Positions 8,079 to 46,048 of a DNA stretch of 46,375 bases are shown one piece after another. A program made the position numbers and the translations under genes. Source of the DNA: a virus (Duplodnaviria > Heunggongvirae > Uroviricota > Caudoviricetes); IMG/VR virus record IMGVR_UViG_2925891887_000007, one strand, 5' to 3'. The notes under the pieces were generated by a model. That model was not told the origin of the DNA. It did not search any database and worked only from the letters and a program-made list of their open reading frames with translations. Within the stretch, counting starts at the first letter, position 1. The number at the start of each line of letters is the position of its first letter.

Positions 8079-8501
8079 GTGGCAAAAGTTTTTACACAAG
8101 AAGAGCGGGAAAAAATTAAAGGGCAGGTGGTGGAACTCGTGCGCCAGAGCGGTCGTGAGACGTTACGGCAACTGGAAGTCAAGACAGGTGCGACAAGATA
8201 TCTGATGAGCGTTCTCGCAAGAGAGCTGGTTGCCAGCGGCGATGTATACAACTCTGGTTACGGGTTATTCCCGTCTGAACAGGCGCGTAAGGACTGGCAA
8301 AATGCCCGTAAAAAGCTCTCAAGGGCAAAGCTGAAGGAACCATCTGCGGTTGATCCGGACCTTATCTGGTCATTACCTGACGGAGAAATACGTCGCTACG
8401 ACAGGCGTCAGAACATAATCTGTCGCGAGTGCCGGAAGAGTGAAGTTATGCAGCGCATACTAGCATTCTATCAGGGAAATGCTCGATATTTATTGAAGTG
8501 A
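8079..8501 (+). CDS. Hypothetical protein with possible HTH
   Basis: 140-aa ORF, GTG start with AAGGGGG RBS. Confidence 0.5.
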   Translation: MAKVFTQEEREKIKGQVVELVRQSGRETLRQLEVKTGATRYLMSVLARELVASGDVYNSGYGLFPSEQARKDWQNARKKLSRAKLKEPSAVDPDLIWSLPDGEIRRYDRRQNIICRECRKSEVMQRILAFYQGNARYLLK

Positions 8502-8753
8502 TGAGATTAAAGTTTATTAGTTCAGATATTGATTGGCTCTTTTGTGGAGTAGGGTAGAGTTAGTGTGTTTGTCTGCTTGGTGCCAGCAGCGGATATGTTT
8601 AACAACAGAAAGCATTCAGCATGGTTAGTGGATTTGCAAAGTGGATTAGGATTTGAGAAACTTTGATGAAGTTGTAAAGCTTGTTTCTATAAAAATAGAA
8701 ATTTAACTAATAGTTAAACACACCTCCAGCTTCATTGAAAAGGATTATTAGCT

Positions 8754-9653
8754 ATGATTGATCCACTTATTAGAAACTTACAGAGTGATATTGCACTACT
8801 CCAGCTTTATATCGCGCAACGCAAACAGGCAGGCTTTCATGACATGGAAAGAATAATTGAGTCATTGACCATCTTTATGTTTCGCGCGCTGAAAATGGGT
8901 GAACTGGTAAACATGAATCAGATTAAAGTTAATTTTCCCGCCATTGATTTAGCTGATAATAAAAACATGATAGCAGTTCAAGTTACTACGAATGCAAGTC
9001 CAGCAAAAATTAAAAAAACTATCGAATCTTTTGAGGAAGCAAATGAAATAGGAGAGAGTCTGAAAGATAAATACTCTACTTTATATATTTTTGGTTTTTG
9101 TAAAGCCTCAAGATACCTAACTCCAAGTTATTGTAAAATAATCGACCCCAGCTATTTCGTGAATGAACTTTGCGATAAAGCAGATGAAGATATGGTCCAG
9201 GATATGATTGACGCCATTCGACGCCATCATGATTATACATCATTACATCCATGGAGTGATAAAGATTCACTCGAAATTATACTCAATATTATTAATCGCA
9301 ATGCAATAAAACATCGGATGAGTTGCGAAGGCAGTCTGTCTGATATGCTCACTGGTTTAAAAGAAATTAATGAAGTAATTACAAAAGGAACAATTCAACG
9401 TAAGCAACGTTCAAAATCGATATCTGACTTCAAAGATCAAAGCATGGTGAAATTTATGAGAGGTGTAATGGATGATTTGTCTGTTATTCAAGCCATAGTG
9501 AACAAATCTAAAGTTAACCAAGGTGATATGGTTTATATAAGCCATGAAGATATGATTAATATTGATAAATTAAAAGCTAAAATAGCAAGTGATTCATCAG
9601 AGATTGCAAGGCTAAATAATATTGATATAACACTAAATGTTGTTGATTTATAA
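8754..9653 (+). CDS. Hypothetical 299-aa protein in low-GC cargo island
   Basis: Long ORF in markedly AT-rich DNA; no catalytic motif recognised by eye. Confidence 0.7.
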   Translation: MIDPLIRNLQSDIALLQLYIAQRKQAGFHDMERIIESLTIFMFRALKMGELVNMNQIKVNFPAIDLADNKNMIAVQVTTNASPAKIKKTIESFEEANEIGESLKDKYSTLYIFGFCKASRYLTPSYCKIIDPSYFVNELCDKADEDMVQDMIDAIRRHHDYTSLHPWSDKDSLEIILNIINRNAIKHRMSCEGSLSDMLTGLKEINEVITKGTIQRKQRSKSISDFKDQSMVKFMRGVMDDLSVIQAIVNKSKVNQGDMVYISHEDMINIDKLKAKIASDSSEIARLNNIDITLNVVDL

Positions 9654-9967
9654 TTGTCGATTTAGCAAAACAGAGAATGCTTTGAAAGTTTCACCGAGAA
9701 ATATTTATTGTGAACCTCCTTATTGTTTATCGACTTTTACTCTCCGCTCATTGCAGTACTGTCGGAGAAGGCTACTATGTACAAGAAGCAGCTAACATAA
9801 GCGAGCATCACTATTGATATTAGGAAGAGTATATAAAAACTTCATGCTGAACCTTACAAAAGTAGGTAAACCGGCAATGGCCTAAGTGGCAGGGTCATGT
9901 TGATCCGGCACTGCCGAGCTAATAATTAACAAGCAAATCACTCTTTCTAATAATTTGTTGAAATAAA

Positions 9968-10627
9968 CTAAATATGTATATGTTTACCAACAACCACATA
10001 TGAACTACCTGCTTTGCTCCATGATTTTATTATTTCTAAATTATTATCTGAGCATATTTTACTTACAGTATCCACATCTAATAAACCATAGTAGAAAGCA
10101 TTACGAGAGTTTTGGTATATATACCCATGCAAATGTTTAATACCGCTCTCGTACCTCTTGAAATAAGAACTTTTGTATTGATTGACAATCAGTGCTTCAC
10201 CATCACTCTTTAATAATTCTCTAATCGCACTGAGGACTTTGTGAATTGTGGATTCACATGGAATTGCGGAAAGCACGTTTGCGCAAAGTATGAAATCATA
10301 ATGATTTGTTATTTTATCTATATTTTCATAAGAAACAATATTAGCATTCTTATAGTTATTTATCACGTAATCTGGAATCGTGGTTTGTACACCTCTGATA
10401 ATTTGCACTCTTTCTAGTTGTCTTCTGGAATCTAAAAATGTCACAGTTTCAAATTTATTTACTAATTGTTCTGAATATCTAAGTTTTCCACATCCAAAAT
10501 CAAGGGCATTGTCATTTTTATTAGTGCTTTCAATCTGTTTACAGAGATAGTTAGATGGCATAGTGTGCGGTTTCGCTGCATTTTCTGAACGTATGTTTAT
10601 TCCATTTATTTTGTAATTCAAAATCAA
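9968..10627 (-). CDS. Small class I SAM-dependent methyltransferase-like protein
   Basis: LDFGCGKL (motif I), acidic residue after beta2 (VTFLDS), DFILCANVL, LLKSDGEALIV; very AT-rich; 7 nt downstream of the membrane protein gene. Confidence 0.65.
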   Translation of the reverse strand: MILNYKINGINIRSENAAKPHTMPSNYLCKQIESTNKNDNALDFGCGKLRYSEQLVNKFETVTFLDSRRQLERVQIIRGVQTTIPDYVINNYKNANIVSYENIDKITNHYDFILCANVLSAIPCESTIHKVLSAIRELLKSDGEALIVNQYKSSYFKRYESGIKHLHGYIYQNSRNAFYYGLLDVDTVSKICSDNNLEIIKSWSKAGSSYVVVGKHIHI

Positions 10628-10633
10628 CCTCGT

Positions 10634-11341
10634 TTAAAAAATATTGTTATTGTTAAAGAATTCTTTTATTTTGCTATCAGGTATTTGTCTTACTTGGCTT
10701 TCTGTTCTTGGTTTAACTGATGCTATGAAAATAAGGAAGTCAAATGCGACAAGAGAAATAATCCACAACCAAAGATTAATTAAAGAGCCAGTAACAGAGA
10801 ATATATTTGTTAATTTGGCGATACTTATTATTAAAATAGTAACAAATGCGATTACTGTATGTTCAAAGAAAACCCAAAAGTAATAAACTTTGTTCCAGAA
10901 AAGTTCAACGTAATGTTTGTCTTTTAACTCTTTAACTTCTGGGTAATACAGTTTACTCATTACCTTGTGAGATTCATCAGTAGTTAATTTTCTCGTAACG
11001 CCTGCAATTTTTGCTAATGGTTTAATAATTAAATGACTATCCCACATCTTCCTTATTCCAATAATTTTTGCTACATTATTATGTAGATCTAAAGCTCCAC
11101 TAATTACTGACCAAAAAACTGAAGATGCAATTGGTAATATGCCAAAGGTTAATATCCATTTAATAAATTCCTCGTAGTCTTTAACGGGGGGGATATACTT
11201 GGCATTAATGCCAACCAATGGCATGTAGCCATAAATGACTAATGATAGGTAAAATATAAATGTAGTAATAAAAGTCGCCTTATGGAGCATAGGCAACATT
11301 TCATTATAACTCTTTGGTGGTTCTAACATTTTACTCTCCAA
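10634..11341 (-). CDS. Integral membrane protein (about 4 TM helices)
   Basis: 235 aa with four long hydrophobic segments; first gene of a two-gene minus-strand operon in the low-GC island. Confidence 0.65.
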   Translation of the reverse strand: MESKMLEPPKSYNEMLPMLHKATFITTFIFYLSLVIYGYMPLVGINAKYIPPVKDYEEFIKWILTFGILPIASSVFWSVISGALDLHNNVAKIIGIRKMWDSHLIIKPLAKIAGVTRKLTTDESHKVMSKLYYPEVKELKDKHYVELFWNKVYYFWVFFEHTVIAFVTILIISIAKLTNIFSVTGSLINLWLWIISLVAFDFLIFIASVKPRTESQVRQIPDSKIKEFFNNNNIF

Positions 11342-12071
11342 ACATTCAAAAAAAAGCTAATCTTCTATAATAACGAAATTCAGCTGGCACAATTAAAGAT
11401 TAATTGCCACCAATTTCTTGATTTTATAATTTTATCTAAATGTTTTTGATTAATCTAGTCCTAAAAGAAACCTACTGCATAAATATTTATGCTGATGACC
11501 CACTCCCTGTTCGTTAACACATAGCAACGTTAGTAATGCATCCTAAGTGATCAATATTTTTGCTAGCTTCATCTGCTCGCTCAAAGGGAACTATAATGTT
11601 GGCTTGCGTGTGACTTGGCATGTTTAAAGAAGTGCTGGTGGTGACTGGTTGCTGTTTTCCATTTCCACAGAACAAAATCATAGAAACTATACCCAGTAGT
11701 TGTATTGAATCACTGACGAGACAGCCTCATATTTATCAGGACTGGTGTACGTCCAATACAGGAGGTTGTGGTGCTGGTTCTCAAATGTGCGCTGGCTATT
11801 GCTGCTGTAATGGCAATTTATTGTCTTGCTGTTGTTCTTATGGATCACCTTTCTGATTGATTTCATATTGGCGAGGTAACGGTAGTTAAGTAGAATTGCT
11901 GCGGGTGCTTGAGGCTATCTGCCTCGGGCATCAACACCAAAGGCAGATAGAGAAAAGCCCCAGTTAACATTACGCGTCCGGCAAGACGCTTAACATTAAT
12001 CTGAGGCCATATCTATGCTCTACACACGTAGGTTAGCCTCTTACGTGCCGAAAGGCAAGGAGAAGCAGGCT

Positions 12072-12227
12072 ATGAAGCAGCAAAAGGCGATGCTAATCGC
12101 CCTGATCGTCATCTGTTTAACCGTCATAGTGACGGCACTGGTAACGAGGAAAGACCTCTGCGAGGTACGAATCCGAACCGGTCAGACGGAGGTCGCTGTC
12201 TTCACAGCTTACGAACCTGAGGAGTAA
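12072..12227 (+). CDS. hokD: Hok family type I toxin
   Basis: MKQQKAMLIALIVICLTVIVTALVTRKDLCEVRIRTGQTEVAVFTAYEPEE; AAGGAGAAG RBS; in-frame upstream extension resembles a mok-like leader. Confidence 0.9.
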   Translation: MKQQKAMLIALIVICLTVIVTALVTRKDLCEVRIRTGQTEVAVFTAYEPEE

Positions 12228-15439: not shown

Positions 15440-15515
15440 GGTCCTTTAGCTCAGTGGTGAGAGCGAGCGACTCATAATCGCCAGGTCGCTGGTTCAAATC
15501 CAGCAAGGGCCACCA
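15440..15515 (+). tRNA. tRNA with CAT anticodon (Ile2/Met type)
   Basis: Cloverleaf with acceptor GGTCCTT/AAGGGCC, D-arm TAGCTCAGTGG, anticodon loop CTCATAA, T-arm GGTTCAAATCC, 3' ACCA. Confidence 0.85.
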
Positions 15516-15620
15516 TCACAAACCGCCATGAGCTTATCAGGAAGAGCAGACGACACGATAACAGGGTTGTTGGTGCGGGGGGGGGGCGGGTCCCCGATGG
15601 CGGTCCATTATCGGTATTCA

Positions 15621-15697
15621 GCGTTGTTAGCTCAGCCGGACAGAGCAATTGCCTTCTAAGCAATCGGTCACTGGTTCGAATCCAGTACAGCGCGCCA
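15621..15697 (+). tRNA. tRNA-Arg (TCT anticodon)
   Basis: Acceptor GCGTTGT/ACAGCGC, D-arm TAGCTCAGCCGG, anticodon loop CTTCTAA, T-arm GGTTCGAATCC, GCCA end. Confidence 0.85.
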
Positions 15698-15807: not shown

Positions 15808-16161
15808 TTGATTGAGTGTTTGTTATACGGTCTAATGGTTTTTTCAGCATTAAATATTTATCATTCATATGGTGTGGGTAGAGTGAATATTGATGAGGCG
15901 TCGGGGTGTTTCATCCTTAGGCAGCGTATTGATATAGTCAATGCAGCACGAGCAAAGGCCTTCAGCCGTTTGACAGTTTTGTTCTGTGCTCCTGATCGTC
16001 TTTCGGGAAGAGACGTTATTATTCTGAATAGTGATGCTATACAGAGGGTTTGCGATGAGTTCATGGTTGCTAATTCAGAATTATTTGCTCTTGTTCAGGA
16101 GTACAACAGAATAGCCAGGACCTGTGGTATGGATGAACTTCGGATTACTCATCTGGGGTAG
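15808..16161 (+). CDS. Hypothetical protein in post-Q cargo slot (start uncertain)
   Basis: 117-aa ORF downstream of the tRNAs; no recognisable motif. Confidence 0.4.
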   Translation: MIECLLYGLMVFSALNIYHSYGVGRVNIDEASGCFILRQRIDIVNAARAKAFSRLTVLFCAPDRLSGRDVIILNSDAIQRVCDEFMVANSELFALVQEYNRIARTCGMDELRITHLG

Positions 16162-16635
16162 ATACATATCTGGATTATCACCTGTTACGGTAAAAAGTGA
16201 TTGCTTACTGTTTTTGTGAATGGCATTGCAGCAGCCGGATAATGTCAGTGCTGGCTGACGGTGTGCTGGTGGCGGGTGTGGTGGTTGTTGCTTTCCCGTT
16301 GCTGAAAAAGAAAACGCCAGACTGTTAGCCGGGTATCAGTTAGCGGGAGAAATTTTTAAATACTTCACAATTCAGGCGGTTGACTGTTCTCTGGTTTGCG
16401 GGGAGTTTGTTAAAAGAAACTGGCATGGTGAATCCCCCTGTGCGGAGGGGCAATCAGCGAGTAGGTATATGGGATAATCGCGGATTCAGGTGCTGGTACT
16501 GAATTCACCGGGAGGCACCCGGCACCATGCACTTCAATAGATTCTCTCCACATTATGGATATTCTTTCAGAATATCCCACGCAGACTTTGTGTAAATGTT
16601 AACAAATGTGCGTTTTATTTGATCTGATTCGCTGT

Positions 16636-19904: not shown

Positions 19905-20072
19905 GGTTGCAGGAAATTTAAAATCTGGCGATGAAATTTAATATTAGAAATTCATTGCCTAGTGAGATTAATAATGGGCATCCCTTTGTGACGATAAGCT
20001 TTAACACATTCACAAAGGGATATTTAATATAGGGTGGTTAATTCCCACTTGCTGTGGTGTTTAGGGGGTAAT

Positions 20073-20765
20073 TCAAATCTTATCTAACTCATTATAGGCT
20101 TCGATAATAAAAATTCTGATTTTAATAAGGCATGATTCAATGAAAGGAATTACTTCATGGTCATTCCCATGGAATCTTATTTTTTTCTCTTCGGTAATGA
20201 CTATGTTTAAAGGTACACCATTACCACTTCTTTGTAATTTCCCATTTTCGAAAGTAAAGTCTTCTAATTTTTTGCCATTGATGTGGTTGTTTTTAAAGAG
20301 AATTTTTGCTGAGCTTCCTGCTGTGATTAAACCAAAACCATCTACGCTCACACTTAGGTCTTTAACAGAACTCTCTTCTCTTAAGGGGATTGGTTGTCTG
20401 TGCTTTACTTCATTAGTGAGATTACACATCATTTCCAACCAAGATTCGCCAGTGTGATAATCCTGTATAGAAGTAAAAATTTTATATAATGGAGAAGATG
20501 ATGGTGGGTTTATTTTTAGCGTCTTTGAGAAAAATTTATCAATAAACTCTTTTTTTCCGTAAGGGAAATATATTTTGGGGCGCTCATCATTACTGCGTGG
20601 AGAAATATATTTATCATAGGTATCATTAGCGAGATACTCTAAGGAACTTCGTAAGTTTTCCAAAATAGCTTTGACTTTTACAGGCTTGATATGCTGTGTC
20701 TGTCTCATTATGCCAAGACTTTCTTCAACTTCTTGCAATAAGTCCAACGAGCCTTCTCTAGACAT
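20073..20765 (-). CDS. Hypothetical 230-aa protein, low-GC cargo between lysis genes and cos
   Basis: Minus-strand ORF in AT-rich DNA flanked by long AT-rich intergenic regions. Confidence 0.65.
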   Translation of the reverse strand: MSREGSLDLLQEVEESLGIMRQTQHIKPVKVKAILENLRSSLEYLANDTYDKYISPRSNDERPKIYFPYGKKEFIDKFFSKTLKINPPSSSPLYKIFTSIQDYHTGESWLEMMCNLTNEVKHRQPIPLREESSVKDLSVSVDGFGLITAGSSAKILFKNNHINGKKLEDFTFENGKLQRSGNGVPLNIVITEEKKIRFHGNDHEVIPFIESCLIKIRIFIIEAYNELDKI

Positions 20766-21150
20766 ACAGGTAATTCTCCTTTATGAATTTTCAACATGTT
20801 ATAACTAATAATATATTTATCATATAACTGTATGAATAAATTGTGAGATTAGTAATGCAAGTTTCTATCCATAGTGTTCTCTAAGTACCCGCTTCCATCA
20901 TGTTGTTACGGACGGTATGGCTAAAACAAAGCACCTGAAGTTAAACGTTCTGAACTTTATGCTCGTTGAGCATATGAATTATCTGTAACCCGATGCGCTG
21001 GTTGTGGTTCACATTGATGGTCGTAATCAGCAGCGGTGGTGCCTGATGGCATGCAACTTCTTACTTATAAAACTTCGTATGGAATTGTTGCCATAACGAG
21101 CCCAGCTTAGCAGTTTTTAATGGGTCCTCCCGGCAGTGTGTCCTGCCACG

Positions 21151-45347: not shown

Positions 45348-45541
45348 CCAACGCCATTCATGGCCATATCAATGATTTTCTGGTGCGTACCGGGTTGAGA
45401 AGCGGTGTAAGTGAACTGCAGTTGCCATGTTTTACGGCAGTGAGAGCAGAGATAGCGCTGATGTCCGGCGGTGCTTTTGCCGTTACGCACCACCCCGTCA
45501 GTAGCTGAACAGGAGGGACAGCTGATAGAAACAGAAGCCAC
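45266..45541 (-). CDS. insA: IS1 InsA
   Basis: 91-aa [45 protein letters not shown]. Confidence 0.9.
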
Positions 45542-45596
45542 TGGAGCACCTCAAAAACACCATCATACACTAAATCAGTAAGTTGGCAGCATCACC

Positions 45597-45605
45597 GAGT
45601 GCCCG
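45597..45605. repeat. IS1 target site duplication (right copy, GAGTGCCCG)
   Basis: Identical to 44820-44828. Confidence 0.8.
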
Positions 45606-45949
45606 ATATTGTTTATCTTGCTTTAAAATAATGTACTCAAACCAAATTTTTGAGCTAAAAGCTCAAATAATATAAATGCAATGATAATGTTTAATAAGAC
45701 AATTAGCTTGCTTTGTATTTTCATTTCGGAATACTGTTAAGTAACTTTGATGACACTAACAATAGATCGGAATTTTCTTAGAGTCAATGGTCACTGTTTT
45801 TGCTTGCAAAGCAAATCTTTTTGGTGGTTATAAGTTTTCTTAATATAGTCACCTATGCAACTTGTTCCGTGTGGAGATTAAAGGTTAAAATTTAATGCGA
45901 AGATGGAATTATAATATATTTTTTTATAATTAATTTAACCTTAACATCG

Positions 45950-46048
45950 TTGCTGGCGGCATGGAAGAAATATCGGGTCTTGCTGATGTCGTGTTGGCAC
46001 TTCCTTAGTGCGGTTATCGAATGGCCAGCTGTACCTGTGGGGTAAAAA
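45950..46048 (+). pseudogene. Degenerate remnant of a tfa 3' end
   Basis: TTGCTGGCGGCATGGAAGAAATATCGGGTCTTGCTG...ATCGAATGGCCAGCTGTACCTGTGGGGTAA parallels tfa 44497-44580. Confidence 0.5.

Follow-up and report, generated by a model that had tools for sequence, protein, structure and literature searches.

SMEK nuclease domains are known from Argonaute and Lamassu systems, in which they serve as plug-in effectors. Two articles credit a SMEK-APAZ protein together with its pAgo with nuclease activity, a result taken from Kim et al. 2020 (PMC10810196, PMC12205087), and a third names SMEK among the N-terminal effector domains of LmuA in short Lamassu (PMC12663957). In the present survey, SMEK domains also head large proteins of the NTPase/TPR type. 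Homologues of ~300 aa are known across Proteobacteria and Bacteroidetes, and the searchable literature yielded no experimental work on the family. One such protein, of 299 aa, is encoded in the window considered here, by which is meant the whole stretch of DNA analysed (46,375 nucleotides). Its coding sequence and the parts of the protein discussed below are as follows.

8754-9653, plus strand: CDS of a SMEK domain-containing protein, 299 aa, stop codon included (from the ORF list; equal to RefSeq CDS WP_000566845.1)
8766-9143, plus strand: SMEK_N domain, of the Mrr-like PD-(D/E)xK nuclease type, aa 5-130, from profile matches
8859-8861, 8946-8948, 8979-8987 and 9006-9008, plus strand: signature residues E36, D65, Q76-V-T78 and K85, respectively
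9144-9650, plus strand: family-specific alpha-helical domain, a predicted four-helix bundle, aa 131-299, with invariant P166, D169, R182, E192, G193 and K221
9297-9314, plus strand: R182-x4-H187 motif within the C-terminal domain

The window, a Qin-like lambdoid prophage that lies beside rspB in E. coli, carries an integrase, dicB, ydfA-D, a Cro/CI pair, replication genes, hokD, rem, rusA and lysis genes. The SMEK gene occupies an accessory hot spot of this prophage, with replication genes on one side and hok/sok on the other, and its neighbours in the window are a DUF977 gene and a methyltransferase. The original prediction had placed an ORF of 299 aa at 8754-9653, in AT-rich DNA unlike the flanking genes and convergent with an operon for a methyltransferase and a membrane protein, and in these respects it was accurate. 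The ORF runs from ATG to stop on the plus strand and is the same CDS as RefSeq WP_000566845.1, GC content is 0.30-0.36 over 8501-11500 as against 0.43-0.52 on the flanks, and the neighbouring genes at 9968-10627 (219 aa) and 10634-11341 (235 aa) both lie on the minus strand. No match to the 3.1-kb island was returned by megablast against the phage collection, and the sole tblastn match in that collection was a partial SMEK_N with which a Klebsiella prophage record ends. The AT-rich island is immediately followed by a hok/sok type I toxin-antitoxin locus (11903-12227), where Rfam matches sok over 11903-12077 (114 bits) and the Hok reading frame is contained in the ORF 12015-12227, named hokD in RefSeq. 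Other low-GC stretches of the prophage (20001-21000 and 45501-46000, 0.34-0.35 GC) are possibly further cargo insertions. RefSeq also annotates tRNA-Ile and tRNA-Arg at 15941-16198 of locus L045 (approximately 15440-15697 of the window), downstream of the prophage antiterminator gene.

The protein had been called an orphan with no recognisable motif, which could not be assigned. This view is overturned by profile searches, which identified SMEK_N with both Pfam (PF21941, residues 10-120, 1.6e-22, 80.3 bits against a cut-off of 27) and NCBIfam (NF033859, residues 5-97, 6.5e-31, 106.1 bits against a cut-off of 30) and no phage structural or replication gene; the RefSeq name is already ‘SMEK domain-containing protein’. 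A search of 5.8 billion proteins yielded 108 homologue clusters at 90% identity, mostly full-length (293-305 aa) and with identities down to 31%, the remainder being shorter, partial or truncated sequences. An exhaustive profile search of a 50%-identity library retrieved 49 full-length representatives (E<=1e-30), together with a wider SMEK_N superfamily of ~2950 representatives. The gene for WP_000566845.1 is present in 151 of 5426 complete E. coli genomes, with 145 copies at least 99% identical, and nearly all of these genomes have it intact, which implies that its activity is tolerated and controlled. The ORF is conserved as a coding sequence, since pairwise dN/dS values of 0.14-0.28 against six homologues, which represent five other contexts (L023 and L032 are near-identical), indicate purifying selection. 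One contig filed as Streptomyces sp. (L001, NZ_JBFBIU010000052.1, 3048 bp) carries an 87%-identical SMEK gene of enterobacterial type, with the same leader and an ORF for a HipA N-terminal region, and is probably a contamination of that assembly. By standard profile searches, then, the gene is readily assignable, and it would represent an already-named domain in a new architecture of a known effector class.

All 96 of 96 family members match SMEK_N. In addition, the PADLOC profile Aga_REase-PNTD1-PNTD2 aligns at its positions 9-143 of 463 with residues 8-146 of the protein (1.1e-20); ‘Aga’ is commonly used as a short form for Argonaute-associated proteins, SiAga1/2 among them. When a profile of the 96 members was compared with solved structures, there was one significant match (E 1e-13, residues 20-139), to 26bh, the Mrr domain of the Mrr-APAZ pAgo protein of Kordia jejudonensis, with the motif nFPaID...vAxQ[IV]T...K...T common to both. 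Within the family, D65, Q76, T78, K85 and T89 are invariant and E36 is near-invariant, so that the signature E...N-[FY]-P-x-[IV]-D...Q-x-T...K...T is present, on a restriction-endonuclease-like alpha/beta core. The signature residues are also kept in SMEK_N domains with quite different C-terminal regions (NB-ARC/STAND-type with TPR; TPR-GreAB-C-PIN). The structure model shows a restriction-endonuclease fold in the N-terminal half, and a Foldseek search of this model against the PDB returned nothing at E<=0.001; Pfam Mrr_cat does not match the 299-aa protein. From predicted secondary structure, E36 would correspond to the helix-1 Glu, D65 to the ‘PD’ Asp and QxT to the ‘(D/E)xK’ strand of PD-(D/E)xK nucleases. 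These comparisons identify the N-terminal half as a SMEK/Mrr-type PD-(D/E)xK nuclease-fold domain. The canonical Lys of (D/E)xK is replaced here by Thr78, with the invariant K85 on the following helix, and for this reason catalytic competence is argued by analogy with the Kordia protein, on which the 299-aa protein would be expected to have nuclease activity.

The remaining ~170 aa form a helical domain which matches generic helical bundles only. SMEK_N is the only Pfam match in the protein, in which known DNA-reader domains, such as winged-helix and SRA, were not found. Invariant residues of the C-terminal domain include F226 as well as the six listed above, and H158, H165 and H187 are near-invariant. 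Used alone, the C-terminal profile retrieves only SMEK_N proteins of ~295 aa and fragments of them, including Bacteroidetes and cyanobacterial members (25-37% identity); the domain is private to the ~300-aa SMEK family. Other SMEK proteins, of 320-335 aa, have C-termini that are unrelated to the domain, as indicated by an hhalign probability of 2%, and no LmuA match was found among them with PADLOC; the contigs that carry them are short. R182-N-A-I-K-H187 fits the HEPN Rx4-6H pattern, and profile or fold support for HEPN was not found. A Fic/Doc assignment is not supported, as LHPWxD resembles the first half of HxFx(D/E)GNGRxxR and the GNGR part is missing; the PDB Fic match to the domain (7cb8_A, E 0.9-1.8) came with no profile or fold support. 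It is tempting to speculate that the domain senses infection in a new way or provides a second catalytic centre, Rx4H recalling the HEPN RNases, in which case the 299 aa would make up a self-contained sense-and-kill immune protein of undescribed type. This must be regarded as an unlikely case.

The explanation preferred here, with moderate confidence, is that the gene encodes a single-gene defence nuclease directed against phages or other mobile elements and controlled by its C-terminal domain. The C-terminal domain would keep the nuclease inactive or confer specificity, as a module for sensing, oligomerisation or ligand binding. Infection would lead the SMEK domain to degrade DNA, the mechanism being either abortive infection or an attack on the invader itself. 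A point against this reading is that the C-terminal domain is highly conserved and not diversifying, which is atypical for a sensor co-evolving with phage proteins. Should the protein prove protective against phages, it would be a compact single-gene system that pipelines currently label by domain name only, and a simple model for the silencing and subsequent release of a SMEK nuclease.

The genomic company of the homologues is consistent with such a role. Members of the family are found in prophages and in integrative and defence islands. The Enterobacter locus contains integrases, resolvases, SymE and TacAT, and the Pseudomonas locus an integrase and SLATT_5. In C. koseri, the gene lies between a Lamassu operon and an AAA_15/21 ATPase, and in Vibrio it accompanies Abi_alpha in a two-gene insertion between core genes; the Cupriavidus locus has a ResIII helicase, a DUF87 ATPase and SymE. 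In a scan with PADLOC and Pfam of 114 ORFs within 4 kb of the SMEK gene at 20 species-level loci, strong PADLOC matches were to GajB (1e-164), a CBASS cyclase (6e-147) with a 4TM effector (4e-164), DpdF and AriA (two ORFs each), defence reverse transcriptases, IetA/IetS, ShosA, PDC-S05 and PDC-S19, to which Pfam added Mrr_cat, AAA_21, a pPIWI-associated nuclease and HipA. This constitutes strong but qualitative guilt by association. In the distant Bacteroidetes branch (L047/L048, 5525-12700; ~34% identity), a small HTH gene precedes the SMEK gene, and a gene of the MtlR family abuts or overlaps its stop and is followed by two GmrSD genes, an arrangement that may be a branch-specific operon.

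A rival reading is a solitary, constitutively active Mrr/type IV restriction endonuclease. Modified or otherwise foreign DNA would be recognised by the helical C-terminal domain and cleaved directly by the SMEK domain, and neither an infection-triggered switch nor cell suicide would be involved. The restriction-endonuclease fold, the annotation of the nearest solved structure as Mrr-type, the absence throughout the family of a cognate methyltransferase for this solo gene and the presence of other type IV enzymes (GmrSD, Mrr_cat) next to it in some loci are all compatible with this. Nevertheless, it is considered unlikely, because known DNA-reader domains, including winged-helix and SRA, were not detected, the C-terminal domain matches only generic helical bundles, and SMEK is a triggered effector module in each characterised context described in the cited papers (PMC10810196, PMC12663957).

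The gene appears to travel with its own regulatory surroundings, of which the following features can be placed on the window.

8570-8753, plus strand: conserved 5' leader (presumed promoter and 5'-UTR), alignable in six other loci from five other contexts
8740-8744, plus strand: Shine-Dalgarno-like AAGGA, conserved, 9 nt before the ATG
9654-9760, plus strand: conserved 3' tail of the SMEK unit, its end approximate, from homology with the SMEK-only loci L023 and L032
8684-8701, no strand assigned: inverted repeat 1, TTTCTAT-AAAA-ATAGAAA, 7-bp arms (script check)
8702-8718, no strand assigned: inverted repeat 2, TTTAACTA-A-TAGTTAAA, 8-bp arms (script check)

Leader homology between contexts begins ~185-195 nt upstream of the ATG, and homology with the SMEK-only loci stops ~100 nt past the stop codon; these bounds indicate that the gene carries its own leader. 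As aligned, the SMEK gene is best seen as a self-contained mobile unit of ~1.2 kb, consisting of a leader of ~185 nt, the CDS and a tail of ~100 nt. A scan for sigma-70-like promoter consensus found no site upstream of the ATG, intrinsic terminator prediction found none in 8400-11700, and Rfam placed no family in the SMEK unit when run over 8300-11860.

The two perfect inverted repeats that had been noted upstream do exist, are slightly longer than was claimed and directly abut each other. They are in excess of a null model of 5000 dinucleotide-preserving shuffles of the 252-nt intergenic region (8502-8753): 0.86% of the shuffles had at least two repeats with arms of 7 bp or more, and 3.3% had a repeat with 8-bp arms. 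The AT-rich island overall has seven repeats with arms of at least 7 bp in its 3 kb, some of them within coding sequence. The function of regulator binding sites suggested for the two upstream repeats is not borne out by the orthologous leaders, from which the palindromes are absent. The site of repeat 1 is non-palindromic in four of five other contexts (L022, L024, L001 and L023/L032) and holds a different A/T palindrome in Pectobacterium (L002), and repeat 2 was created by a 14-nt deletion and substitutions in the window lineage only, relative to all aligned relatives. The palindromes thus arose by indels and substitutions in that lineage; they might have a lineage-specific regulatory role, which nothing supports.

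In the leader, RNAalifold pairs the conserved segment 8620-8631 (CAUAGUUAGUGG) with the start-codon stretch 8745-8756 (UUAUUAGCUAUG), a weak hint of translational control. No covariation was found for this pairing with RNAalifold and RNAfold, and the fold z-score is -1.6. An RNA element in the leader is not supported on these grounds, and a small leader ORF is not conserved in the aligned leaders. A toxin-like addiction or stabilisation gene, serving the mobile element and not host defence, would accord with such a pairing, the nuclease toxin being checked by an unrecognised antitoxin such as the leader RNA or translational control. The conserved 185-nt leader accompanies the gene into prophages, islands and an IncHI2 plasmid, and toxin-antitoxin genes (SymE, TacAT, HipA, hok/sok) are often nearby. 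However, no conserved partner ORF exists, and with the leader structure as poorly supported as described and no Rfam match in 8300-11860, this reading is judged quite improbable. A type II toxin-antitoxin module in particular was rejected, there being no conserved neighbouring ORF in 21 loci and no conservation of the small leader ORF.

Of the two possibilities raised in the original prediction for the relation of the gene to its surroundings, that of an independent accessory gene fits the comparative data. The 21 species-level SMEK loci examined have 30-87% identity and include some short contigs (for example L001 and L005, ~3 kb). When their flanking ORFs were clustered all-against-all, no neighbour was conserved across them, in keeping with a cargo gene in low-GC DNA. 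The other possibility, a third component of the adjacent system, would have the SMEK protein work with the membrane protein and the class I SAM methyltransferase. It is very improbable, and largely refuted by co-occurrence: tblastn detected a homologue of the methyltransferase or the membrane protein at 0 of the 21 loci, with flanks of up to 10 kb on each side, one of these loci being that of Pectobacterium (L002, 83% identity). The E. coli EC05 and Enterobacter copies, which adjoin integrases, are likewise SMEK alone. Conversely, in seven of seven further loci (L025-L031; four look-ups), including P2-like prophages, the methyltransferase gene follows that of the membrane protein and SMEK is absent; in Enterobacter asburiae and Providencia the pair lies just downstream of ogr/delta in such prophages, and in another context it is found near a relaxase gene, again with no SMEK. 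Moreover, the SMEK gene is convergent and not co-transcribed with the pair, and the methyltransferase matches class I families of small-molecule type (Methyltransf_12/23, TehB), with no DNA-methyltransferase motif on reading of its sequence. No family was assigned to the 235-aa membrane protein, whose homologues are narrowly confined to Enterobacterales.

What speaks for a functional connection is the joint occurrence of all three genes in an AT-rich cassette of ~3 kb in three replicon contexts, namely the window prophage (8500-11500), a prophage of E. coli EC28 (L022, 5800-8600; 83% protein identity) and an IncHI2 plasmid of Citrobacter koseri (L024, 5800-8600; 90%), and their presence together in at least 150 of the 151 E. 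coli genomes that have the SMEK gene. Joint travel of the three genes is confined to close relatives. In the unlikely case considered above for the C-terminal domain, this recurrent cassette of the Enterobacteriaceae might also form a functional trio. The membrane and methyltransferase genes are, by their distribution, a separate conserved two-gene mobile module, and it is concluded that the SMEK unit and this pair are two cargo modules that were recently co-mobilised, and not a three-component system. On that conclusion, the structure of the AT-rich island is resolved into two independent cargo modules adjoining hok/sok at 11903-12227. A restriction-modification pair with the adjacent methyltransferase was rejected on the same grounds, since co-occurrence is 0 of 21, the pair is found without SMEK and the enzyme matches families of the Methyltransf_12/23/TehB type.

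The idea of a catalytically dead nuclease-fold protein that serves as a DNA-binding regulator, for which the loss of the (D/E)xK Lys to Thr78 and the name ‘regulator’ given to homologues in some sources (legacy database names) might be cited, is extremely improbable, as QxT is a family-wide SMEK signature in common with the Kordia domain, which has reported nuclease activity (PMC12205087), the invariant K85 stands on the following helix and the ‘regulator’ names have no traceable evidence.

With regard to known systems, no complete defence system was matched, the PADLOC match being confined to the N-terminal REase part of the Argonaute-associated profile. A STAND/Avs-type NTPase with an N-terminal nuclease was rejected, given a length of 299 aa and SMEK_N as the sole Pfam match. 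With the Mrr/restriction-endonuclease-fold proteins AF1548 (1y88), NgoMIV, N.BspD6I and NucS, sequence identity is only 5-11%; the SMEK protein has QxT in place of (D/E/Q)xK and no Mrr-type N-terminal DNA-binding domain. The K. jejudonensis SPARMA Mrr-APAZ protein (PDB 26bh) has a homologous N-terminal nuclease domain with the same nFPaID...QxT...K signature. It differs in possessing APAZ, which the 299-aa protein lacks (the PADLOC match covers positions 9-143 of 463 only), having instead an unrelated four-helix bundle, and a short Argonaute (MID-PIWI) gene is neither adjacent in the window nor conserved across the 21 loci. LmuA of short Lamassu (ABC-3C; PMC12663957) shares the layout of a small protein with an N-terminal SMEK, a helical C-terminal region and residence in defence islands, although its partners LmuB/LmuC are absent from the window and from 20 of the 21 species-level SMEK loci, and none of the Pfam families for ABC-3C effector CTDs matches the 299-aa protein. 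The SMEK copies of L038/L039 do adjoin a Lamassu, which is complete and has its own CTD7 effector. The large SMEK_N-headed proteins (NB-ARC/STAND-type with TPR; TPR-GreAB-C-PIN) have the same SMEK_N domain and signature but are of 900-1500 aa, with NTPase/TPR or PIN sensor/regulatory regions, in contrast to 299 aa and no NTPase here. The C-terminal domain stands where APAZ, the C-terminal region of LmuA or the NTPase/TPR regions stand in other SMEK proteins, and since it takes their place it would control or direct the nuclease. Compared with these systems, the ~300-aa SMEK family would be the minimal form, an effector with one small private domain and no partner genes.
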